This document shows, piece by piece, positions 30,821-42,211 of a DNA stretch of 64,000 bases (the stretch's first letter is position 1; each line of letters opens with the position of its first letter). The notes under the pieces were generated by a model. That model had not been told where the DNA came from, made no database searches, and saw nothing but the letters and a program-made list of their open reading frames with translations. The translations under genes and the position numbers were made by a program. Origin of the DNA: Polaromonas sp. (GTDB taxonomy: Bacteria; Pseudomonadota; Gammaproteobacteria; Burkholderiales; Burkholderiaceae_C); contig JANNYZ010000030.1 of the NCBI GenBank assembly GCA_031410335.1, forward strand, positions 543-64,542. The letters are read 5' to 3'.

Positions 30821-31609
30821 TCAGTGCATTTCAGCCAGCATGCCCATCCCCGGCAACTTGTCATCAATGCCCAGCCTGCGCATGGCCAGCCAGTAGGTCG
30901 CCACGTTCACGCCAATCAGCGGCTTGCCAAACCTCTTTTCAATCTCAGGCGTCATGCTCGACACAGGCAGGTTGGTGCCGACGTGGATCAGTGCCTCGGC
31001 CTCGGGGGTGTTGGTAGCTTCAAAGCCCTGCATGATCTGCTCGCGTGTGAAGCGGGCCACGGCGGTAGGGCCAACCGACTTCAAGCCGTGCGTGGCCACC
31101 ACGTCGTAGCCGCAGGACCTGAAAAAATCAGCAATCATGTTGTCTGCGGGCGGCCAGTAGGGCGTGAGGATGGCAATGCGTTTGGGGTTGCCGATCGCCT
31201 GAAGGCCCGCCAGTACCGCGCGTGACGGCGTGATGAAGGGCACGCCGCACAGGGCTTCAAGCCGCTTTTCTTCATCAATCGCGCGCTGACCGTCACCGCG
31301 AAACGAGTGGATGGAATGGCCGTGCGCCACGACGTGCGGCTCGCACACCATCACCAGTTTGAGGGCGTCTTCCAGATTACCCTCTTCAGTTTCGAGTGCT
31401 TTTTTGTAGGCGTCCTGATCGTCGTAGGGGCGCGGTGGCAGGTGCATGCGGGTGACGTGGTTGGTCACACCCGGCGGGCGCATGGCCTCCATTTCGGGCT
31501 GCACCACGGTATTGGTGGCGGGTACCACCACAGCGACTTTGGCGCGGTAGGCAATCGTGTCGGTGCTGGGAGCGCGTGCTATGGAATGGGTCACATGTGG
31601 GTCAGTCAT
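30821..31609 (-). CDS. Asp/Glu racemase-maleate isomerase-AMDase superfamily protein lacking the usual catalytic Cys
   Basis: Start at ATG 31609; VVVPATNTVVQPE, RIAILTPY, VGTNLP, KPLIGVNVATYW. Confidence 0.8.
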   Translation of the reverse strand: MTDPHVTHSIARAPSTDTIAYRAKVAVVVPATNTVVQPEMEAMRPPGVTNHVTRMHLPPRPYDDQDAYKKALETEEGNLEDALKLVMVCEPHVVAHGHSIHSFRGDGQRAIDEEKRLEALCGVPFITPSRAVLAGLQAIGNPKRIAILTPYWPPADNMIADFFRSCGYDVVATHGLKSVGPTAVARFTREQIMQGFEATNTPEAEALIHVGTNLPVSSMTPEIEKRFGKPLIGVNVATYWLAMRRLGIDDKLPGMGMLAEMH

Positions 31610-31613
31610 TGAC

Positions 31614-32615
31614 TTATTCAATTTTGAGGTTGCTGGCTTTGGCGGCCTCGGCCCAGGTGGCTGAATCCGCACGCAGGGTATCGGCAAACTGCGCGGGTGT
31701 ATCGCCAATCGCATCGACGCCCAATTGCCACAGGCGCGCACGCATTTCGGGCTTGCTGACGGCGGACTGCACGGCTGATGCGACGCGGTTGACGATGGCA
31801 GGCGGTGTGCCAGCCGGCGCGACGATACCGTTCCATGTCAAAGTCTTGAAGCCCGGGTAGCCTGATTCTGCCAATGTAGGGACGTCAGGGATCTGTTTGG
31901 CGCGGTCAAGGCTGGACACAGCGATGATGCGGATCTTGCCGCCCTCTGCATGCGGCGCAAGCTCGGACAGGTTACCGAAATACATCTGCACCTGGCCGCC
32001 CAGCAAATCAGCAACGGCAGGGCCGCCACCCTTGTAGCTGATGTGGGTCATGTTGATGCCGGCACGCTTGAGGAAGAGCACGGGCGACAGGTGCGACACG
32101 CTGCCGGAACCGCCCGAAGCAAAGTTGAGCTTGCCGTCGTTCTTTTTGGCGTAGGCCACAAACTCTCGCACATTTTTGGCGGGGACAGAACTGCTGATGG
32201 CCATCACAAACGGGTTGCTGCCAACATTGCTGACGGGGATGAAATCACGCGCGGGATCGAACTTGGTTTTGGTGATGGACGGCAGTATGGCCAGGACCGG
32301 CATCGCCGCCATGAGCAGCGTGTAGCCGTCAGGCGGTGACTGGGCCACAAAGTCTGCAGCAATGGCCCCGTTGGCACCGGCTTTGTTTTCAACAAGGACA
32401 GGCTGGCCCAACGACTGGGAAATACGCTCGGCCGTCAGGCGCGCAATGCCGTCGGTGTTGCCACCGGCTGCAAACGGCACGATGATCTTGATGGGGCGCT
32501 GCGGCCAGTTGCCTGTTTGGGCTTGGCCCAGTTGGGTGGCGCCCAGTAACCCCAGCGCGATGCAGCTGAGGTGAAGGCGACGCGATAAATGGCGTATTGG
32601 GTTGGGGTTGGTCAT
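31614..32615 (-). CDS. Bug/TctC substrate-binding protein
   Basis: Start at ATG 32615; PFAAGGNTD, VENKAGANG, FASGGSGSVSH, YKGGGPA. Confidence 0.95.
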   Translation of the reverse strand: MTNPNPIRHLSRRLHLSCIALGLLGATQLGQAQTGNWPQRPIKIIVPFAAGGNTDGIARLTAERISQSLGQPVLVENKAGANGAIAADFVAQSPPDGYTLLMAAMPVLAILPSITKTKFDPARDFIPVSNVGSNPFVMAISSSVPAKNVREFVAYAKKNDGKLNFASGGSGSVSHLSPVLFLKRAGINMTHISYKGGGPAVADLLGGQVQMYFGNLSELAPHAEGGKIRIIAVSSLDRAKQIPDVPTLAESGYPGFKTLTWNGIVAPAGTPPAIVNRVASAVQSAVSKPEMRARLWQLGVDAIGDTPAQFADTLRADSATWAEAAKASNLKIE

Positions 32616-32638
32616 GGCGGCCTTTTTGAAGCAAAAAA

Positions 32639-33859
32639 TCACGTTATTGCATTCGCACGTTTGATGCTGTTGATCATGGATGACATCAGCAAATACTCAC
32701 GCGTCTTTTGCGGGCTGGCCGCTGTGTCCCGCAGTTCGGCAAATCGTTTTAACCGGGAAGGCAAATCTTTTTCTTCCAGGTTTTGCTTGTTCTTGATGGA
32801 GGCGTTTTGCACGTATTCCATCGCTACCGTGCGCCGCTGTCTTTCATACAAATTCAGCAAGTCATGGTTTGCAGAACCCTGCACAACACGTGCCAGCTTG
32901 TCACCCAAGTTGATGGCGTCATGAATGCCGCTGTTCAAACCAAAGCCGCCCAGTGGGTTGTTGACGTGCGCCGAGTCCCCCGCCAGCAGCACTCGGCCGG
33001 CGCGGAACTGATTGGCTACCCGCTGATGGACGTTGTAAACGCTTTGATGAACGATGGGATAAACAGTCGTTGCCGGCGCGTTGATGGCGCGGTTGATGGC
33101 GTTTTGTGCAAACGCAGGTGCCAGCACTTCTTCGTCTGTCGTGTCGGGCTGTACCGGCAGCGTCATGCGCCACAGGCCGGGCGGCCCTTTGTCCGGCATG
33201 CGGAAAAATGCCAACCACTGCTCTGGGTCACTGATGTAGGCGTTGTCGGCATAACCTGCGGGCGCAAAGTCGTGCGTCGTGCTGATCACGCTATACCGCT
33301 CTGGCCAGGTGTAGCCATCAAACCCTATGCTGGACGCCTTGCGCACCAGGCTGCGGCCACCGTCTGCACCAATCAGCCAGCTGCCAGTCATCTGTACCTC
33401 GCCTTGCGGCGTTTTGGCCACTGCCGTCACGCCGTCGTCGGCTTGCGTTAGCGACACAAACGCATGCGAGAACAGGACTGTTGCGTGACTGTGCTCAAGA
33501 AGCATCTTGAGCAAAATGGGCGTCAATCGGTGCTGCTCCAAGTGCAGCCTGAAAGGAAATAGCGTGTCATCTTTCAACACCGACAAGTCCCACTCCACAA
33601 TCAGGCCGTACTCGCGGTCACGTGACTGCCAGCGCGGCACCTGAATGCCGATGGCCATCATCGCGTCTGTCACGCCGGATGCTTGCAGCATCTCCAGCGT
33701 AGGCGGGTGAAAGGTTCCGGCGCGAAGGTCAATGGTGGTAGCGGGTTCGGCTTCAATCACCGTGACAGCCACGCCCCGACGTGCCAGCTCAAGTGCGCAC
33801 AGCAAACCCACCGGGCCCGCGCCCACAACGATGACTGGGGATGGTTTTTGTATGTTCAT
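32639..33859 (-). CDS. FAD-dependent monooxygenase (class A, PheA/MhpA-like)
   Basis: Start at ATG 33859; VVGAGPVG, LIGADGGRS, LAGDSAHVNNPLGGFGLNSG. Confidence 0.88.
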   Translation of the reverse strand: MNIQKPSPVIVVGAGPVGLLCALELARRGVAVTVIEAEPATTIDLRAGTFHPPTLEMLQASGVTDAMMAIGIQVPRWQSRDREYGLIVEWDLSVLKDDTLFPFRLHLEQHRLTPILLKMLLEHSHATVLFSHAFVSLTQADDGVTAVAKTPQGEVQMTGSWLIGADGGRSLVRKASSIGFDGYTWPERYSVISTTHDFAPAGYADNAYISDPEQWLAFFRMPDKGPPGLWRMTLPVQPDTTDEEVLAPAFAQNAINRAINAPATTVYPIVHQSVYNVHQRVANQFRAGRVLLAGDSAHVNNPLGGFGLNSGIHDAINLGDKLARVVQGSANHDLLNLYERQRRTVAMEYVQNASIKNKQNLEEKDLPSRLKRFAELRDTAASPQKTREYLLMSSMINSIKRANAIT

Positions 33860-34746
33860 TGCAGCGTCACGCGGGCTTCGATGCCAATGTGCCCCGTGTT
33901 GTTGGTTGACCAGAGCTGCCATACCTTCGCCTCGTCGGTTTTGGAGGCATGCAGGTGAAAACCGCTCAAGTCAAAGGTAGGCCGCATGGCCCGAAAGTCA
34001 AACGACTGGATGAACACGCCAGGTGCGATTTGGTTTTCAATGAAACCCAGCAGCAGTGTGGCAATGAGCGGCCCGTGCACCACCAGGCCCGGATAGCCTT
34101 CAACTTGGCGGCAATAGTCCACGTCATAGTGGATGCGGTGGCCATTGAAGGTGGCTGCCGAGTAGCGGTACAGCATCACGGCATCGGCTTTGACGGGCTG
34201 GCTGTGCTCGCCCTGGCGCTCAAAGCGGTGTTCGCCTGCCTGGATTTGCGCGGCGACTGCTTGCAACGCTTCTTTCTCAAGCTCACTGGGCATGCCCCGG
34301 TAAACAATGTCGTGCTCCTCAAGCAGCAACAAGCCTTGGGAGTCTGCGTAGCGATGCGCAACAGTCACAAACACCATCTCGCCCGTGCGGCCACTCTTTC
34401 GATTCACGCTGATGATCTCAGACGCTTTGTTGACGCTGGACCCAACATGAAGGGCGCGATGCCAGGTCAGCCGGCCGCCTGCCCACATGCGGCGTGGCAA
34501 GTCTACCGGTGGCAAAAAAGTGCCGCGCTGCGGGTGGCCGTCGTCACCGAGCAGGGACTGCACCTCCAGCGGGTTGAAGTACAGCCAGTGCCAGCCTGCA
34601 GGCAAGGGCGCAATGTCTGGCTGCTGCATGCGTGCGGCATCATTCAGCGTTGCCGCCATCTGGCGCACCTGAACCGGGCTGATGGTGTCGGTGACGGTTT
34701 GCTGTCGGCCTACCCAGTCTTCAAGGGCCGGTGTTGTAACTGTCAT
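33856..34746 (-). CDS. Double hot-dog MaoC/FAS1-like acyl-CoA hydratase (Meh/Ich-like)
   Basis: Start at ATG 34746; GWHWLYF, DGHP, RRMWAGG, YSAATFNGHRIHYD, GLVVHGPL. Confidence 0.88.
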   Translation of the reverse strand: MTVTTPALEDWVGRQQTVTDTISPVQVRQMAATLNDAARMQQPDIAPLPAGWHWLYFNPLEVQSLLGDDGHPQRGTFLPPVDLPRRMWAGGRLTWHRALHVGSSVNKASEIISVNRKSGRTGEMVFVTVAHRYADSQGLLLLEEHDIVYRGMPSELEKEALQAVAAQIQAGEHRFERQGEHSQPVKADAVMLYRYSAATFNGHRIHYDVDYCRQVEGYPGLVVHGPLIATLLLGFIENQIAPGVFIQSFDFRAMRPTFDLSGFHLHASKTDEAKVWQLWSTNNTGHIGIEARVTLQ

Positions 34747-34747
34747 G

Positions 34748-35917
34748 TCAATACGACCTCGGCATACCCAGCACGTGTTCGCCGACGTACGACAGGATGA
34801 GGTTGGTTGAAATCGGTGCCACCTGGTAAAGCCGAGTTTCCCGGAACTTGCGTTCAATGTCGTATTCGGCGGCAAAGCCAAATCCGCCGTGCGTTTGCAG
34901 GCACACGTTGGCGGCTTCCCACGACGCATCAGCCGCCAGCAGTTTTGACATGTTGGCCTCTGACCCGCAAGGCAAGCCGGCATCAAACAGCTCGCAGGCC
35001 CGATAGCGCATCAGGCTGGCGGCTTCCACGTTCACAAACGCGCGAGCAATCGGGAATTGCACACCCTGGTTTTTGCCAATCGGCCTGTCAAATACCACGC
35101 GGTCGTTGGCATAGGCGCTGGCTTTCTCGACAAACCAGTAACCATCGCCCACGCATTCGGCAGCGATCAAAATACGCTCAGCGTTCAGACCGTCCAGGAT
35201 GTACTTCAGGCCCTGGCCTTCTTCGCCAATCCGGTTTTCAACCGGGATGCGCAGGTTGTCAATGAAGATTTCGTTGGTCTCATGGTTGACCATGTTGCGG
35301 ATCGGCCGCACAGTGATCGACTTGCCGATTTCTTCACGCAAGTCCACCAGGAAAACCGACAGGCCTTCGGTCTTCTTTTTCACATCAGCCAGCGGCGTGG
35401 TGCGTGCCAGCAGCAGCATGTAGTCTGAATGTTGCAGGCGTGATGTCCAGACTTTTTGACCCTGCACCACGTAATGGTCGCCCTTGAGTGTGGCGGTGGT
35501 TTTGAGTTTGGTGGTGTCGCTGCCCGTGGTGGGCTCGGTCACCGCCATCGACTGCATGCGAATCTCGCCGCTGGCGATGCGCGGCAACAGGTCCTGCTTT
35601 TGCTTGGCAGAACCATGGCGCACCACGCAGCCCATCACATACATCTGGCCGTGGCAGGCACCTGAATTGCCGCCGGCACGGTTGATCTCTTCCATCACCA
35701 CGCTGGCCTCGGTCAGCGACAGGCTGGAGCCGCCGTATTCCTCAGGAATCAATGCAGACAGCCAACCTGCGTCGGTCAGGGCCGTGACAAACTTTTCAGG
35801 AAACGCGCGCGCCTCATCGACCTCTTGCCAATAGCGCGAGTCAAATTGCGTGACCACCGCGCGAACGCCTTCGCGCAGCTCGGTAAATTCGTATTTATGG
35901 TTGTTTTGCTTGATCAT
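34748..35917 (-). CDS. Acyl-CoA dehydrogenase
   Basis: IPEEYGG, AVTEPTTGSD, GQKVWTS, HGGFGFAAEYDIER. Confidence 0.93.
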   Translation of the reverse strand: MIKQNNHKYEFTELREGVRAVVTQFDSRYWQEVDEARAFPEKFVTALTDAGWLSALIPEEYGGSSLSLTEASVVMEEINRAGGNSGACHGQMYVMGCVVRHGSAKQKQDLLPRIASGEIRMQSMAVTEPTTGSDTTKLKTTATLKGDHYVVQGQKVWTSRLQHSDYMLLLARTTPLADVKKKTEGLSVFLVDLREEIGKSITVRPIRNMVNHETNEIFIDNLRIPVENRIGEEGQGLKYILDGLNAERILIAAECVGDGYWFVEKASAYANDRVVFDRPIGKNQGVQFPIARAFVNVEAASLMRYRACELFDAGLPCGSEANMSKLLAADASWEAANVCLQTHGGFGFAAEYDIERKFRETRLYQVAPISTNLILSYVGEHVLGMPRSY

Positions 35918-35937
35918 GAAACGTTTGGAAAATAAAT

Positions 35938-36717
35938 TTATTGGGGTGTGGCGTACATCTGCCCGCCGTCGACGTTGATAACCGTGCCCGACAAATAGCT
36001 GGACAGTGGGGAGCAGCTGAAGGCCGTGAGGTCTGCAATTTCCTGTGGCTCGGTCATGCGGCCAAAGGGCATTTTGGCGGTCAGTTCCATCCAGCGATTT
36101 TCATCGCCCAGCTTTTGCGTGGCCTGCGCGCGCAGCATGCCCTCCATGCGGTCACTGCGGGTGGGTGAGGGGTTGATGCCAAACACGCGCACGCCTTTGC
36201 GCGGGCTGGTCGCTCCTACAGCTTGTGTAAACGCCATCAGCGCTGCATTGGCGGTGGAGCCGCAAATGTATTCAGCACGCGGCACGGCACCGGCCATGCC
36301 AATGATGTTGGCAATCACACCGCTGCCGCGCTGCTCCATCTGCGGCAACACGGCGCGTATCAAGTTGATGTAGCCAAAGAGTTTGAGCTCCCAGGCGGCG
36401 CGCCATTTGGCATCGTCTACCGCAGCCAGTGCACCGCCGGGAATCGCGCCTGCGTTGTTGACCAGAATATCAATGGCGCTCGCACCAGACATTAGCACGT
36501 CAATACCGGCCTGCGTGCCGAGGTCAGCAGCGACTGTCCCCGCTGTCACTCCTGTAGCCTGCCGGATGCTGGCCACCGCTTTGGCCAAAGATTCAGCCGA
36601 GCGCGACACGATGATGGGCACAGCACCTTCACGCGCAAAGGTGGTGGCAATCGCCAGGCCAATGCCCTTGGAGCCGCCCGTGACCAGCACGCGCTGGCCT
36701 TGAAGTTTTAAATCCAT
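35938..36717 (-). CDS. Short-chain dehydrogenase/reductase
   Basis: VTGGSKGIG, LVNNAG, INVDGG; the usual YxxxK is not obvious (EYICGSTAN). Confidence 0.85.
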   Translation of the reverse strand: MDLKLQGQRVLVTGGSKGIGLAIATTFAREGAVPIIVSRSAESLAKAVASIRQATGVTAGTVAADLGTQAGIDVLMSGASAIDILVNNAGAIPGGALAAVDDAKWRAAWELKLFGYINLIRAVLPQMEQRGSGVIANIIGMAGAVPRAEYICGSTANAALMAFTQAVGATSPRKGVRVFGINPSPTRSDRMEGMLRAQATQKLGDENRWMELTAKMPFGRMTEPQEIADLTAFSCSPLSSYLSGTVINVDGGQMYATPQ

Positions 36718-36732
36718 TTTTTAAATCTGTAG

Positions 36733-37611
36733 TTAGTGTGAAGGAGCGGCCACCTGCGCGGTGTACCAGTCGGCAATGTCATGGCCCTGCATGAAGCAAA
36801 CGCCGGGTGTTTTCATCAGCAAGTCGAGCATCTGCTCAAACGAGCCAAAGCGGTGCGGTACACCGATCAGGTGCGGGTGCAGGCCCAGTGTCAGGACTCT
36901 AGGCCGGGTTTTGGCTTCACGCTCGAACAATGCCACCGTGCGTTTGAGGCGTTCCAGCATTTCATCGGACGAATGTTTTTCAACCGCGTAAATGATGGAG
37001 TCGTTGATCTCCAGGTTGTACGGCAAGCTCAGCAGCGGGCCGCGCGTCGTCGTCATCCAGTTGGGTACATCGTCCACCACCCAGTCAAACACATAGTCAA
37101 TGCCTGCGGCTTTCAGATTTTCAGGTGTGTCGTGGCTTTCCCGCAGCCCTGGGCCGAGCCAGCCGCGTGGGCGTGTGCCGGTGAACGCTTCAATCATGTC
37201 AAGGCTGGTTTTGATGACGTCCTGCTCTGCTCCAGCGTGGTTCAGCGCCTTTTGATGCACGCCATGGCCAATGAATTCCCAGCCTGCGCTGTGCATGGCC
37301 TCAGCGGCGCGCGGGTAGGCGTCAATCACGCTGGCGTTGAAGCTTGTCGACGCGGTGAGGCCGCGCGAGGTGATGGCATCAATGATGCGCGGCAGGCCGC
37401 AACGCATGCCGTAATCGACCCAGCTGAAGTTGGGCACATCGGGCACGGTTTCCTTGCCGTGCGGCGGCGTGATGATGGTGCGCGGCATGGGCGCGTCAAA
37501 CGACCAGTGCTCCACGTTCACCACCAGGTGCACCAGAATGTTGCCACTTGCGGTTGCCTTGAGTGGTGGGCCTTCGTTAGAAAAGCGGTACGGGATGCGC
37601 GGGTTGGCCAT
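36733..37611 (-). CDS. Polysaccharide-deacetylase-fold amidohydrolase (PuuE-like)
   Basis: LVVNVEHW, DYGMRCG, WEFIGHG, GWLGPG, DWVVDDVP, LGLHPHLIG. Confidence 0.8.
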   Translation of the reverse strand: MANPRIPYRFSNEGPPLKATASGNILVHLVVNVEHWSFDAPMPRTIITPPHGKETVPDVPNFSWVDYGMRCGLPRIIDAITSRGLTASTSFNASVIDAYPRAAEAMHSAGWEFIGHGVHQKALNHAGAEQDVIKTSLDMIEAFTGTRPRGWLGPGLRESHDTPENLKAAGIDYVFDWVVDDVPNWMTTTRGPLLSLPYNLEINDSIIYAVEKHSSDEMLERLKRTVALFEREAKTRPRVLTLGLHPHLIGVPHRFGSFEQMLDLLMKTPGVCFMQGHDIADWYTAQVAAPSH

Positions 37612-37630
37612 AAATGTTGTGAATGAAAAT

Positions 37631-38380
37631 TCAATGTCTGATCTGCTGCAATATCTCGCGTTTCATCGCGTTGAACGCTTCAGATGTAGTGTCTTCAATG
37701 GTGCGCGGTCTGGCCAGCGGTACCGTCATGCGTGCCTGAATTCGGCCGGGGCGGGCCGACATCACGTAAATGGTGTCGGCCAAAAATAGCGCCTCGTCAA
37801 TGTCATGTGTGACAAACACAATGGTTGGCTTGAGCTGCTGCCACACCGACAGCAACAGCTCTTGCATGGTCAGTCGGGTTTGTGCGTCCAGTGCACCGAA
37901 AGGCTCGTCCATCAGCAGCACGCGTGAACCGAGTGTCAGGATGCGCGCAATACCTACCCTTTGGCGCATGCCACCGGACAGTTGCACAGGCAGGTGATTT
38001 TTAAAATCAGACAAACCCACAATATGCAGCATCTCGTTGGCGCGCTCAACATAGTCCGTGGGCGACTGGCCCTGGGTTTTGGGGCCGAAGATCACGTTTT
38101 CCCACACGCTGAGCCACGGGAAAAGCGCCGCCTCCTGAAACACCACGCCACGGTCTGGCCCGGGTTTGTCAACTGGCTCGCCATGCACTAGCAGCGTGCC
38201 ACCGCTGGCTTGTTCAAAGCCAGCCACCAAATTTAAAAGTGTTGACTTGCCGCAACCCGAAGGCCCCAACAGCGCGACAAATTCACCATCGCCGACCTCC
38301 AGGTCGATCTTGTCGAGCGCATGGACGGGCGGCTGTGCCGGGTAGGTCTTGTCGAGTTTTTGAATGCTGATTGCGGACAT
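37631..38380 (-). CDS. ABC transporter ATP-binding protein (TauB/SsuB-type)
   Basis: GPSGCGKST, LSGGMRQRV, LLMDEPFGALD, VTHD. Confidence 0.95.
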   Translation of the reverse strand: MSAISIQKLDKTYPAQPPVHALDKIDLEVGDGEFVALLGPSGCGKSTLLNLVAGFEQASGGTLLVHGEPVDKPGPDRGVVFQEAALFPWLSVWENVIFGPKTQGQSPTDYVERANEMLHIVGLSDFKNHLPVQLSGGMRQRVGIARILTLGSRVLLMDEPFGALDAQTRLTMQELLLSVWQQLKPTIVFVTHDIDEALFLADTIYVMSARPGRIQARMTVPLARPRTIEDTTSEAFNAMKREILQQIRH

Positions 38381-38395
38381 ACGGACTCGAAAGTT

Positions 38396-39196
38396 TTAAT
38401 GGTTTTGAAGAATGCGCCAACGCAGGACGCGCTGCTCTGCAAACACAATCAGGCGGTCACTGAGGTAGCCCATGACGCCAATCGACACCATGTCGGCCAG
38501 CACGATGTCCATGCGGCCCACGTAGTAAGCGTCCCACAGCACATAGCCCAGGCCGGATTTGACAGCTACCATTTCAGACACGATGACGGCTGTCCATGAA
38601 ATGCCCAAACCAATACGCAGACCCGTAAATATCGACGGCATGGCCGACGGAAATACCACCCGCCGCAGCAGTTGCATGCGGGTCGCGCCCATCATCATGG
38701 CGGCGCGCATCAGGTTGCGTTCTACATCGCGCGCACCCTGCGTGGTGTTGACGACGATGGCGTAAAACCCACCCAGGAAAATCAAAAAAATCGAACCCAT
38801 GTCACGGATGCCAAACAGCGCAATTGAAAACGGCAACCAGGCAGTAATGGGGATGGGCCGCAGGCCCTGAATGAAAGGGTCAAACATTTGCGAGGCCAGT
38901 TTGCTCCAGCCAATCATCAAGCCCAGCGGCACACCCAGCAGCGTTGCCAGCGCAAAGCCCTGCGCCACGCGCATGGCTGAGTACTGCACATTGGCCAGCC
39001 AGGTGCCCAAATAAGGATTCAGCCCCATGCCCGGCTTGCCGAACACCCACTGATTAAAGCCCTCCAGCACGGCCAGCGGCGTGGGCACAATGCCGGCCAT
39101 GTTGGGCTGGCTGCCGGCGACTTGCCAGAACACCAACACAGCCACAGGCACCACCGCGCCAAGTAAGAGTTGCTTCATGCGTGACATGGATGACAT
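38396..39196 (-). CDS. ABC transporter permease (TauC/SsuC-type)
   Basis: LRPIPITAW, EAA-like region, SEMVAVKSGLGY. Confidence 0.93.
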   Translation of the reverse strand: MSSMSRMKQLLLGAVVPVAVLVFWQVAGSQPNMAGIVPTPLAVLEGFNQWVFGKPGMGLNPYLGTWLANVQYSAMRVAQGFALATLLGVPLGLMIGWSKLASQMFDPFIQGLRPIPITAWLPFSIALFGIRDMGSIFLIFLGGFYAIVVNTTQGARDVERNLMRAAMMMGATRMQLLRRVVFPSAMPSIFTGLRIGLGISWTAVIVSEMVAVKSGLGYVLWDAYYVGRMDIVLADMVSIGVMGYLSDRLIVFAEQRVLRWRILQNH

Positions 39197-39208
39197 TTGT
39201 TGTTCAGA

Positions 39209-40186
39209 TCAGCGCTTGATCTCGCGCACCATGCTGTCGTCATATAGCGCAGCGGCATCAGTTGCAACATCCTTTTGTACGATACCTTGCTTGAAGGCAG
39301 CATCAGCCTGCAGTCGCACCTGTTCTTTGGTCAGCACGCCGCCCAGCTTGATGATTTTGGATGACTCTTTGGTCACCGCAATCGGCAGGCCGGTGTACTT
39401 TGAATACGCATCGGCAAACGCATCGTTGTTTTTGGCCATCTGCTCTTCAGCATTCATGTACACCCACAAAAAACGGCGAATGGCTTCTTTCTTATTGGTC
39501 ATGGCCTCACGCGATGCGGCCAGCATGCCCAGCTCTGCACCGACTGACTTGGCCTGACTGTATTCCAGACTCTTTGCAAAGTAGGCATCGCCTTCAGCCA
39601 CGGCTTGCGACTCAAACGGCTCCCAGAGCACCATCGCGTCAATATCGCCACGCTTGAGCGCCTGCAAGAAAGCTGTGCCGCCACCCTGAATATTGACCGG
39701 TGTGAAGGTGCTGTAGGGCACTCCTTTTTCAACCATGGTCATGGCCCACTGAAACCACACCGCAGAGCCGGGGGCAATGCCAATCTTTTTACCCGCCAGA
39801 TCTTTCCAGTCATTGATGACCACGCCTTTGCGCACCACCAGATTTTTCAGCGAGCCCCCTACACCTGTCAGGCCCACCAGGTTCTTGCTGCCTTGCGATG
39901 CTGCAATGGCCAAGTCACCAGGGCCGACAGCCGACACATCTACCGAGTTGGACAGCAGGGCGGTCCGTGCGTCGGCGTAGCGCACAAATTCAGCGCGCTT
40001 GACATCGATGTTGAATTTTTTAAGTTCTTCTTCAATGTTGAGCATGGGCGACAAGTGCCCCACTTTGACGAAGCCAACCGTTAGCGTTTCACGCTGTGCC
40101 AGGGGTGCAGGTGCAGGCCCGATGGCCTGAACGGCGGTGGTGATGGCCGTCATGAAGACGGCTGTTATCGCTGCAAAAAGTTTCAT
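39209..40186 (-). CDS. ABC transporter substrate-binding protein (TauA/SsuA/NMT1-type)
   Basis: Signal peptide; DLAGKKIG, GDIDAMVLWEP. Confidence 0.88.
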   Translation of the reverse strand: MKLFAAITAVFMTAITTAVQAIGPAPAPLAQRETLTVGFVKVGHLSPMLNIEEELKKFNIDVKRAEFVRYADARTALLSNSVDVSAVGPGDLAIAASQGSKNLVGLTGVGGSLKNLVVRKGVVINDWKDLAGKKIGIAPGSAVWFQWAMTMVEKGVPYSTFTPVNIQGGGTAFLQALKRGDIDAMVLWEPFESQAVAEGDAYFAKSLEYSQAKSVGAELGMLAASREAMTNKKEAIRRFLWVYMNAEEQMAKNNDAFADAYSKYTGLPIAVTKESSKIIKLGGVLTKEQVRLQADAAFKQGIVQKDVATDAAALYDDSMVREIKR

Positions 40187-40233
40187 GATTCAAACTCCAT
40201 TCAGGTTAAAAAACACACAAGGAAATCCAGACA

Positions 40234-41010
40234 CTACTGACCATTGAAATTCGGTACCCGCTTTTCGGCAAACGCCTTGCGGCCTTCCGCATAGTCGCTG
40301 CTGGCAAAACAGGCTTTGACTTGTCTATCTACTGTCTGCACATCAGCATCGAGGCTCCCTGAAAGCAGCGTACTGAACGCGTTCTTGGCCGTTGCAATGG
40401 TCATGGGGGCGTTGCTTGCAATTTCTGCACCCGTTTGCGCAGCATAGGCAAATACATCCTCATGCACTGAATTGATCACACCCATGCGTTCTGCTGCTGC
40501 AGCGTCCAGTACACGGGCCGTGTAAAACACTTCGCTGGCGCGCGCTACCCCCAGCACATCGAGCAGCCGTTTCATACCCTTGAGTGCATAGCCCAGGCCC
40601 AGCCGCGCGGCAGGCATTCGAAACCGTGCATTGGGTGCAGCGTAGCGCATGTCGCATGCCATCGCCAGGCCCAAACCACCGCCATAACAAATACCGCTGA
40701 TGGCGGCAATCACCGGGCGCGGAAACTGCGCAAGGGCTGTCTGGGCGCGGTCAACTGCCGCATCGTAAGTAGCAACATTGGCGGGGTCGTTGCGCTGCGT
40801 ATCAAACTCGCTGATGTCAGCGCCCGATACAAAAGCCTTGTCGCCATCACCGCGCAAAATAACACAGCGAACCGATGTGTCGTTGCGCAATATCTCCAGC
40901 GTGTCGCCCAGCTTTGCCCACATCGCCATCGACATGGCGTTGTGTCGGCTGGGGTTAGACAGCGTGATGGTCGCCACGTGGCTTTCAATCTGGTGGGTCA
41001 CATCAGCCAT
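40234..41010 (-). CDS. Enoyl-CoA hydratase/isomerase
   Basis: Start at ATG 41010; AFVSGADISEF, GICYGGG, DYAEGRKAFAEKRVPNF. Confidence 0.92.
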   Translation of the reverse strand: MADVTHQIESHVATITLSNPSRHNAMSMAMWAKLGDTLEILRNDTSVRCVILRGDGDKAFVSGADISEFDTQRNDPANVATYDAAVDRAQTALAQFPRPVIAAISGICYGGGLGLAMACDMRYAAPNARFRMPAARLGLGYALKGMKRLLDVLGVARASEVFYTARVLDAAAAERMGVINSVHEDVFAYAAQTGAEIASNAPMTIATAKNAFSTLLSGSLDADVQTVDRQVKACFASSDYAEGRKAFAEKRVPNFNGQ

Positions 41011-41014
41011 ATTT

Positions 41015-42211
41015 TTAAACGACTCCGTTTGAATGAAACTGTTCAATGTCAGTTTCAGAATAACCGGCTTCAGCCAACACCTCGTCGGTGTGTTGTCCCC
41101 AACCTGGTGCCTGCGCCACCACTGTTGCCGGGGTGCGCTGTAGCACCACTGGCTGGTTGATGTAGTGCATTTCCTTGCCGAAGTCAGTTACCAAGGATGT
41201 CGTCACACCCAGGTGCTGAACCTGCTCGTCTTCAAACACCTGGGGTACGGTGTACACCGGACCGGCGGGGACGCCTGCATCGTTGAGCAATTTGACCCAA
41301 TGCTGCACGCTTTGGGTTTTGAAAATATCAGCCAGCAGGGGGGTGAGCCTCTCACGGTGCTTGACGCGCAGTGGCTCGGTTTTAAACTCTTCGTCGTTCA
41401 ACCACTCAGGGCGATACAGCAGCTTGCACAAGCGGATCCAATTGCCTTCGCCCGATGCGCCGAGGTTAAACACGCCGTCGGCTGCTTCAAACAAACCCAT
41501 CGGGCTGCTGGTCGGGTGGTCGTTGCCGACTTGTATCGGCAAGTCGTTGTCGTTCAAATAGCGCGCCATCTGGAAATCCATCATGGCGATTTGGGAATGG
41601 AGCAGCGACGCATGCACCCACTGGCCCTTGCCGGAGACTTCGCGCTCCAGTAGAGCCGTCAAAATACCCAGCGCGGCATACAGACCAGCGCTCATGTCAG
41701 CCACTGCCAGCCCGGCGCGTACCGGGCCATGGCCGGGCAAACCTGTCACGGACATCAGCCCGCCCATGCCCTGCACGATCTGGTCGAAGCCGGGGCGACC
41801 CGCCAGCGGGCCATCCTGGCCAAAGCCTGAAATACTGGCCAAAATAATCCGTGGATTCACAGCCGCCAAAGATTCGTAGTCAATGCCGAGCTTGGTTTTG
41901 ACATCGGGCCGCCAGTTTTCAACCAGCACATCGGCGTCTTTCACCAGGCGCATCAACACATCACGCGCGCCTGGTTTTTTCAGGTTGAGCGTCATCGACC
42001 GCTTGTTGCGGTTGATGTTCTGAAAGTCTCCGCCCTCGCGGTTGGCGGCAAACATGGCTTCGTTTGGATCAATGCCGGGGGGTGGCTCGATGCGAATCAC
42101 GTCGGCACCAAAGTCAGTCAGCATGCGCACGCAATTGGGGCCAGCGCGCACGCGGGACAAGTCAAGGACGCGAAACCTGGCCAGCGCGCTGGAAGCCTGA
42201 ATTTTGGGCAT
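41015..42211 (-). CDS. Class III (CaiB/BaiF) CoA transferase
   Basis: RVLDLSR, FGADVIRIE, NRNKRS, ENWRP, SGFGQDGP, catalytic-type D in VADMSAG. Confidence 0.93.
   Translation of the reverse strand: MPKIQASSALARFRVLDLSRVRAGPNCVRMLTDFGADVIRIEPPPGIDPNEAMFAANREGGDFQNINRNKRSMTLNLKKPGARDVLMRLVKDADVLVENWRPDVKTKLGIDYESLAAVNPRIILASISGFGQDGPLAGRPGFDQIVQGMGGLMSVTGLPGHGPVRAGLAVADMSAGLYAALGILTALLEREVSGKGQWVHASLLHSQIAMMDFQMARYLNDNDLPIQVGNDHPTSSPMGLFEAADGVFNLGASGEGNWIRLCKLLYRPEWLNDEEFKTEPLRVKHRERLTPLLADIFKTQSVQHWVKLLNDAGVPAGPVYTVPQVFEDEQVQHLGVTTSLVTDFGKEMHYINQPVVLQRTPATVVAQAPGWGQHTDEVLAEAGYSETDIEQFHSNGVV

Follow-up and report, generated by a model that had tools for sequence, protein, structure and literature searches.

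A conserved maleate isomerase/arylmalonate decarboxylase-fold protein of Polaromonas with histidine and glycine at the two catalytic cysteine positions, encoded beside a PnpA/HspB-like monooxygenase

The window analyzed here, a 64,000-nucleotide stretch of Polaromonas sp. DNA, contains a long minus-strand operon whose last gene encodes a protein of the maleate isomerase (MaiA)/arylmalonate decarboxylase (AMDase) type; we call this gene cysteine-free with respect to the catalytic positions of that fold (Table 1). In order, the operon encodes a class III CoA-transferase, an enoyl-CoA hydratase, an NMT1-type ABC importer, a PuuE-like hydrolase and an SDR, followed by an acyl-CoA dehydrogenase, a MaoC-like hydratase, a group A FAD monooxygenase, a TctC receptor and the cysteine-free gene. 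The longest open reading frames of the operon overlap their neighbors: the MaoC-like frame (33856-34986, minus strand) shares about 240 nt with that of the dehydrogenase, and its real start therefore probably lies further downstream; the probable start of the monooxygenase at 33859 forms an ATGA overlap with the MaoC stop.

Table 1. Genes, codons and conserved residues at the locus, in window coordinates.
Feature	Position	Strand	Remarks
Cysteine-free MaiA/AMDase-fold gene	30821..31609	minus (31609->30821)	262 aa; Pfam PF17645, AF2 model, Foldseek; 119 orthologues
TctC/Bug-type periplasmic carboxylate receptor	31614..32642	minus	stop 4 nt before ATG of the cysteine-free gene
Group A FAD monooxygenase, PnpA/HspB-like	32639..33922	minus	likely true start ATG at 33859, giving 406 aa
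Linked module	33856..42211	minus	MaoC-like hydratase, acyl-CoA dehydrogenase, SDR, PuuE-like (polysaccharide-deacetylase fold) hydrolase, ABC ATPase, permease, NMT1-type binding protein, enoyl-CoA hydratase, class III CoA-transferase
His98 codon	31316..31318	minus	position of MaiA Cys76 / AMDase Gly74; 119/119 orthologues
Gly211 codon	30977..30979	minus	position of MaiA Cys194 / AMDase Cys188; Gly in 106/121 nearest cluster representatives
H96-G97-H98-S99-I100-H101 segment	31307..31324	minus	with H209, the orthogroup-specific four-histidine set
H209 codon	30983-30985	minus	fourth His of the set
Cys89 codon (MVCEP)	31343..31345	minus	helix 79-89 ends at this residue; strand 93-96 follows
Carboxylate-binding residue N33			kept in 116/121 representatives
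Carboxylate-binding residue S/T99			kept in 102/121 representatives
Carboxylate-binding residue Y151			kept in 90/121 representatives
Carboxylate-binding residue T212			kept in 91/121 representatives
Carboxylate-binding residue N213			kept in 86/121 representatives

The product is a member of PF17645 (Amdase), which it matches with 65.6 bits against a gathering threshold of 25.9, and its AlphaFold2 (AF2) model (pLDDT 95.6, pTM 0.92), together with Foldseek, shows the two-domain alpha/beta fold of the MaiA/AMDase type; the racemase/maleate-isomerase fold assigned in the sequence-only reading is thus borne out. Foldseek ranked MaiA first (TM 0.76-0.83), followed by 4IX1 (an unannotated hypothetical protein of Rhodococcus opacus), ST0656 and AMDase, and MaiA was the best match by both sequence and structure (profile E 1e-43). 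The Pfam search gave no match of the protein to PF01177, the family of the Asp/Glu/hydantoin/allantoin racemases, and the Foldseek TM to these racemases was only 0.47-0.56. EutA and the allantoin and hydantoin racemases belong to the same superfamily, and the EutA equivalog (TIGR02990) was the best NCBIfam match. An identity as EutA was rejected: the match, confined to the C-terminal half, scored 77.3 bits, far below the cut-off of 318, and the EutA-like proteins that we sampled have a Cys/Cys pair (GCTS ... SCT). The arylmalonate decarboxylase equivalog NF052327 similarly scored 57.8 bits, far below its cut-off of 225. AMDase (EC 4.1.1.76; Bordetella bronchiseptica 3DG9/3IP8) shares the fold and the Pfam family of the window protein and is defined by a Gly74/Cys188 pair (PMC4996985), in place of which we found His98 and Gly211, and this identity was rejected as well. 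Automatic names follow the family: the ESM Atlas gives 'putative maleate isomerase / AMDase family', and the JGI label on the orthologues, which are 69-95% identical to the window protein, is 'maleate isomerase'. A full-text search for PF17645 and IPR026286 found no literature.

Recent papers (bioRxiv 10.64898/2026.01.14.699310; PMC12661438) treat one or two catalytic cysteines as characteristic of this fold, and the racemases of the superfamily use two (PMC12661438). We found no cysteine at either catalytic position of the window protein. The two segments that had been read from the sequence as the active-site positions, AHGHSIHSF (residues 95-103) and IHVGTNLP (residues 208-215), were confirmed as such by a profile, a multiple alignment and the AF2 model. 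In the comparison of a 108-sequence profile with PDB chains, H98 lies opposite Cys76 of Nocardia MaiA (ILYAC76LVA) and position 74 of AMDase, and G211 lies opposite AMDase Cys188. For the MaiA counterpart of G211, the profile alignments as printed disagree by one residue in the Cys193/Cys194 region; when the segment is read without gaps from the conserved proline, G211 falls at Cys194, with the chain numbering compared with that of the C194 mutant entry 2XED. Similarly, when 121 full-length sequences, each representing a 50%-identity cluster and chosen as those nearest to the window protein, were aligned with MAFFT, the Cys/Cys relatives (VDVILYGCTSGSF ... FISCTNFP) align without gaps with PHVVAHGH98SIHSF ... 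LIHVG211TNLP, such that YGCTSGSF stands against HGH98SIHSF at the first site and ISCTN against HVG211TN at the second. At the first site, the AF2 model runs from helix 79-89 through strand 93-96 and a turn at G97-H98-S99 into helix 100-103, and at the second it has strand 206-209 followed by V210-G211-T212-N213, so that H98 and G211 are each two residues past the end of a strand, at the start of a helix; this location places both residues at the catalytic positions of the MaiA/AMDase fold. Together, these results show that the gene is real and strongly conserved, and that its two-domain product has His98 where MaiA has its nucleophilic Cys76 and Gly211 where MaiA has its second catalytic cysteine, which upholds the earlier claim that His or Gly replaces both cysteines.

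The MaiA/NicE/Iso enzymes (Nocardia farcinica 2XEC/2XED; Pseudomonas putida S16 4FQ5/4FQ7) have, like the window protein, the two-domain fold, VPxxN, TPY and the H..R strand motif, at an identity of about 20%. N33 and Y151 align in the profile with the VPSSN and TPY of MaiA, and we take them to be the equivalents of MaiA Asn14 and Tyr133, with the carboxylate-binding roles known from the MaiA structure papers. The dioxyanion hole of AMDase (T75, S76, Y126, G189), which aligns with S99, I100, Y151 and T212, seems only partly matched. Given the changes from Cys76 to His98 and from Cys194 to Gly211, the covalent succinyl-cysteine mechanism of MaiA is impossible in this protein; the same positions lead us to infer that the protein can use neither covalent Michael addition, as MaiA does, nor Cys-to-carbon protonation, as AMDase and the racemases do.

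Could another cysteine of the protein serve instead? A pairwise phmmer comparison with PDB 4FQ5/2XEC does pair C89, in the motif MVCEP, with MaiA Cys76, and both this pairing and the JGI label would fit an ordinary maleate isomerase or racemase that uses C89, C121 or C166. We rejected the pairing as a slip of 9 residues, since it conflicts with the profile, with the alignment to the Cys/Cys relatives and with the secondary structure of the AF2 model; in these, C89 closes the preceding helix and lies on the other side of the sheet. C89, C121 and C166 each lie at a junction between a helix end and a strand start in the model, a topology that would put all three on the face of the sheet away from the cleft. 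None of the three is invariant among the 119 orthologues (C89 is present in 115, C166 in 116 and C121 in 89); C89 is replaced by Ala or Ser in the four exceptions, and its column is Cys in just 48 of the 121 clade-wide representatives. Moreover, the second cysteine position is Gly regardless, and a true Cys/Cys MaiA is encoded elsewhere in the genome. We therefore consider an enzyme of this ordinary kind highly improbable, and, judged from the alignments and the model, C89 is not a catalytic substitute. A cysteine such as that of MVCEP within the active site was the finding that the sequence-only reading had named as its own refutation; the alignments, the AF2 topology and the 119 orthologues neither place nor conserve one there. 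Annotation from the pairwise match could wrongly infer an intact nucleophile, as phmmer pairs the non-catalytic C89 with MaiA Cys76.

The loss of the thiols extends well beyond the window protein and its orthologues. Among the 121 nearest representatives, only 10 have a Cys/Cys pair; position 98 is Met in 36, Val in 19, Leu in 13, Cys in 12, Ile in 11 and His in 10, 81 have Gln at position 209 and 9 have His there, and the carboxylate-binding residues are largely kept (Table 1). The 'GTN' clade of PF17645, as we provisionally define it, lacks Cys at 98, has Gln or His at 209 and reads G-T-N at 211-213. The window protein has all three features, and in common with other members it is encoded next to a PnpA/HspB-like monooxygenase, as many of them are. 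In most members, position 98 is Met, Val, Leu or Ile, position 101 is Glu or Pro and position 209 is Gln; the orthogroup of the window protein differs in having His at 96, 98, 101 and 209. Since His98 is absent from most of the clade, it is not the clade's universal catalytic solution.

With the MaiA of this genome as root, a FastTree phylogeny puts the Cys/Cys proteins, the EutA-like ones included, outside the cysteine-free clade (support 0.80). That clade contains a subclade with H98, Asp101 and Gln209 (support 0.976), and nested in this subclade is the window orthogroup, in which 96, 101 and 209 are all His (support 1.0); the corresponding labels on the tree are LHDQG/VHDQG in the nearest clade versus HHHHG in the orthogroup. 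Read from this nesting, the order of events would be that both thiols were lost, His98 was then gained, and three more histidines were then gained around it. On the evidence of these sequences, the cysteine-free clade is large and conserved, and the orthogroup is a derived subclade of it with four histidines (H96, H98, H101 and H209). We found no biochemical work in the literature on any member of the cysteine-free clade.

The genome has three PF17645 genes. One, on contig C83 (L002: 1495-2256, minus strand), encodes a canonical Cys/Cys maleate isomerase (STACLVAIM ... LSACVQMP) and lies directly downstream of a hisD-like gene; with this enzyme present, the window gene is not needed for maleate isomerization. 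A paralogue on contig C66 is cysteine-free and of the Met type (VMGMSAATFW ... VQVGTNLS). It is the last gene of an operon (L100: 2383-8035) that also encodes an FAD monooxygenase, a PrpB-like enzyme of the PEP-mutase/isocitrate-lyase family and an isochorismatase-family hydrolase, and that is adjoined by a LysR regulator and a TctC gene. The C66 monooxygenase is 46% identical to that of the window and has the same best matches, PnpA and HspB. The earlier inference that the chemistry must differ from thiol-based isomerization, racemization or AMDase-type protonation still follows, and is strengthened because the loss of the cysteines is common to a large, conserved clade and because the genome keeps a Cys/Cys maleate isomerase. 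The two reactions offered as examples in that reading, cofactor-free decarboxylation and His-based tautomerization, are hypotheses. From the sequences, the window protein probably catalyzes thiol-free chemistry of a type so far undescribed.

We found that the histidines are better conserved than any cysteine of the orthologues: H51, H92, H98 and H101 are present in all 119, and H96 and H209 in 118. From sequence position and secondary structure, H96, H98, H101 and H209 would be clustered around the cleft. Relatives outside the orthogroup have a hydrophobic residue at 96, Asp, Glu or Pro at 101 and Gln at 209. This four-His cluster, which is new here, could equally mean metal binding as acid/base catalysis. 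HxH at the end of a strand with a distal His is a common metal-binding pattern, and the three extra histidines that surround H98, in comparison with the nearest clade, are conserved in 118 or 119 of the 119 orthologues. H96-x-H98, H101 and H209 might then have been gained together as a Zn, Fe or Mn site between the domains that polarizes a carboxylate or carbonyl for decarboxylation, hydration or isomerization. However, the same histidines could instead bind the carboxylates of a polyanionic substrate or relay protons, and we know of no metal-dependent member of the MaiA/AMDase fold. Nor is such a member included in bioRxiv 10.64898/2026.01.14.699310 or PMC12661438. We therefore regard a metal-dependent enzyme as unlikely; if it is one, it would be a metalloenzyme inside a superfamily known as cofactor-free.

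The gene neighborhood provides a second line of evidence, and the pairing with the monooxygenase, like the four-His cluster, is new here. The closest solved relatives of the window monooxygenase are PnpA (1e-63) and HspB (1e-54), enzymes that hydroxylate para to a ring hydroxyl with expulsion of the substituent. HspB is encoded in P. putida S16 in the same nicotine-degradation gene cluster as the maleate isomerase Iso. Across the 68 orthologous loci with enough upstream DNA, an orthologous monooxygenase (at least 55% identity) lies directly upstream on the same strand in 60; a monooxygenase 38-41% identical occupies that place in four further loci, and in the last four the gene lies between the acyl-CoA dehydrogenase and the PuuE-like/SDR genes. 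In most orthologous loci, the TctC gene stands between the monooxygenase and the cysteine-free gene. A TctC receptor gene beside the enzyme gene is also found in beta-proteobacterial amd clusters (PMC4996985). The same pairing recurs in the family of the C66 paralogue, in which a monooxygenase homologue is near, and often immediately adjacent to, the gene in 18 of the 34 metagenome loci with more than 3.6 kb of upstream sequence. From this second pair on C66 and the metagenome loci, we conclude that the monooxygenase and the cysteine-free protein form an old, repeatedly retained unit. These linkages show a shared pathway, not the order of its steps.

Such a tight and repeatedly duplicated pairing with one monooxygenase subfamily, together with the loss of both canonical catalytic residues and the retention of the binding-site residues, might also be expected of a non-catalytic partner: a ligand-binding, chaperoning or regulatory subunit of the flavin monooxygenase that, for example, delivers or sequesters a reactive carboxylate intermediate. 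Yet the loops HGHSIHSFRG and HVGTNLPVS are invariant (H96 and H209 in 118 of 119), which is more than plain binding requires. In addition, relatives occur beside enzymes of other families: those with H98/D101 adjoin a luciferase-like monooxygenase, a WelO5-like oxygenase with a TRAP transporter, or an MmgE/PrpD protein, and a Met-type relative adjoins a molybdenum hydroxylase. Because these partners are unrelated to one another, a pathway enzyme fits better than a dedicated subunit, and we judge the non-catalytic alternative to be quite unlikely, slightly more so than a metal site.

Several further arrangements were seen in the surroundings of these genes. In locus L009 (6673-8783), the gene of P0128, a relative of the H98/D101 type, overlaps an MmgE/PrpD-family gene at its stop, and a divergent LysR gene is also present; locus L004 has two MmgE/PrpD and TctC pairs just downstream of the orthologue. 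In L007/L008 (1276-5458), a gene for a molybdenum-hydroxylase large subunit, with soxYZA-like genes after it, is found a few kb upstream of the triad of monooxygenase, TctC and Amdase genes.

Our data favor, at about even confidence, a thiol-independent acid/base enzyme centered on His98, either a proton-shift isomerase/tautomerase or a decarboxylase; this reading draws on the sequences and the model. In the mechanism that we propose, the family's carboxylate-binding framework (N33-T34, S99, Y151 and T212-N213) would be retained, and proton transfer would occur without a thiol at a carbon adjoining a carboxylate or carbonyl. His98 would act as the acid/base on the face occupied by MaiA Cys76, helped by H101, H96 and H209, and the protein would act on a carboxylate intermediate that the neighboring monooxygenase either produces or receives. 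As to the class of reaction, we prefer a 1,3- or 1,1-proton-shift isomerization or tautomerization (of a substituted maleate, an aconitate-like acid, or the keto/enol forms of a hydroxylated ring), a choice that is tentative and still somewhat doubtful. Substituted maleate or aconitate-like acids as substrates would suit the PrpD-like and PrpB-like neighbors and the receptor of tricarboxylate type, and keto/enol forms of a hydroxylated ring would suit the monooxygenase neighbor.

Second in our preference, and less likely, is a decarboxylative protonation that would be the natural mirror image of AMDase, with His98 protonating the carbanion from the face opposite that of AMDase Cys188. The engineered (S)-selective AMDase variants G74C/C188S or C188G offer a parallel, since they too have their sole candidate proton donor at position 74 and a small residue at 188; the window protein differs from them in having His, not Cys, at position 74. 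AMDase relatives are valued for chiral acids, and the window enzyme would be a natural counterpart of these variants if its sole candidate donor is on the opposite face.

The wider module may point to a pathway. The CoA/PuuE/SDR/ABC genes occur, in varying order, within 8 kb of most orthologues, and in some genomes an amidase is part of the module. An amidase-signature gene lies immediately before the CoA-transferase gene in L004 (1-1328) and in L007/L008 (11743-13032), the latter with a GntR/FCD regulator between the two modules; the window cluster has no ORF of at least 150 aa immediately upstream of the CoA-transferase on the same strand. The lower nicotinate pathway of Aspergillus nidulans comprises FAD monooxygenases, an SDR, a PuuE-related cyclic imidase and an amidase (PMC9304392). 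Taken with the CoA-transferase, dehydrogenase, hydratase and NMT1-type importer, the window cluster resembles a CoA-dependent breakdown of hydroxypyridine carboxylates or cyclic imides, and by this analogy it might, in the weakest of our readings, serve the CoA-dependent catabolism of an N-heterocycle (a hydroxypyridine carboxylate) or a cyclic imide. Candidate substrates that we considered from the linked genes are citrazinate, 2,6-dihydroxynicotinate, glutarimide-type imides, tetrapyrrole-derived maleimides and aconitate-like tricarboxylates.

A large and conserved cysteine-free clade would mean an unrecognized reaction type in a well-studied scaffold, and its extent makes public labels such as 'maleate isomerase' on its proteins probably wrong; the pairing with the monooxygenase gives a concrete handle on the substrate. 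Taking the branch as a whole, we put forward a broader picture that we hold possible, with clearly less confidence than the acid/base reading itself: that cysteine chemistry was swapped for another kind (in the orthogroup, a His cluster serving acid/base or metal chemistry), that the proteins are obligate partners of PnpA/HspB-type monooxygenases, that they catalyze a reaction new to the fold (an allylic or tautomeric proton shift, or a mirror-image enantioselective decarboxylation), and that they serve an undescribed N-heterocycle or tricarboxylate catabolism in abundant freshwater Comamonadaceae.

A scan with one genome per species gave 152 relatives, and among the best 80 of these the carriers are mostly freshwater Comamonadaceae and Burkholderiaceae MAGs, with the labels Polaromonas, Limnohabitans, Variovorax and Hylemonella. 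As these are common freshwater bacteria, the pathway may matter for the turnover of dissolved organic nitrogen or carbon. Within the operon, the acyl-CoA dehydrogenase (34748-35917, minus strand) is by far the more strongly conserved gene: it is 99% identical in the closest genomes (L010-L012), versus 90-95% for its neighbors, and it keeps 84-94% identity where the cysteine-free protein has 70-85%.
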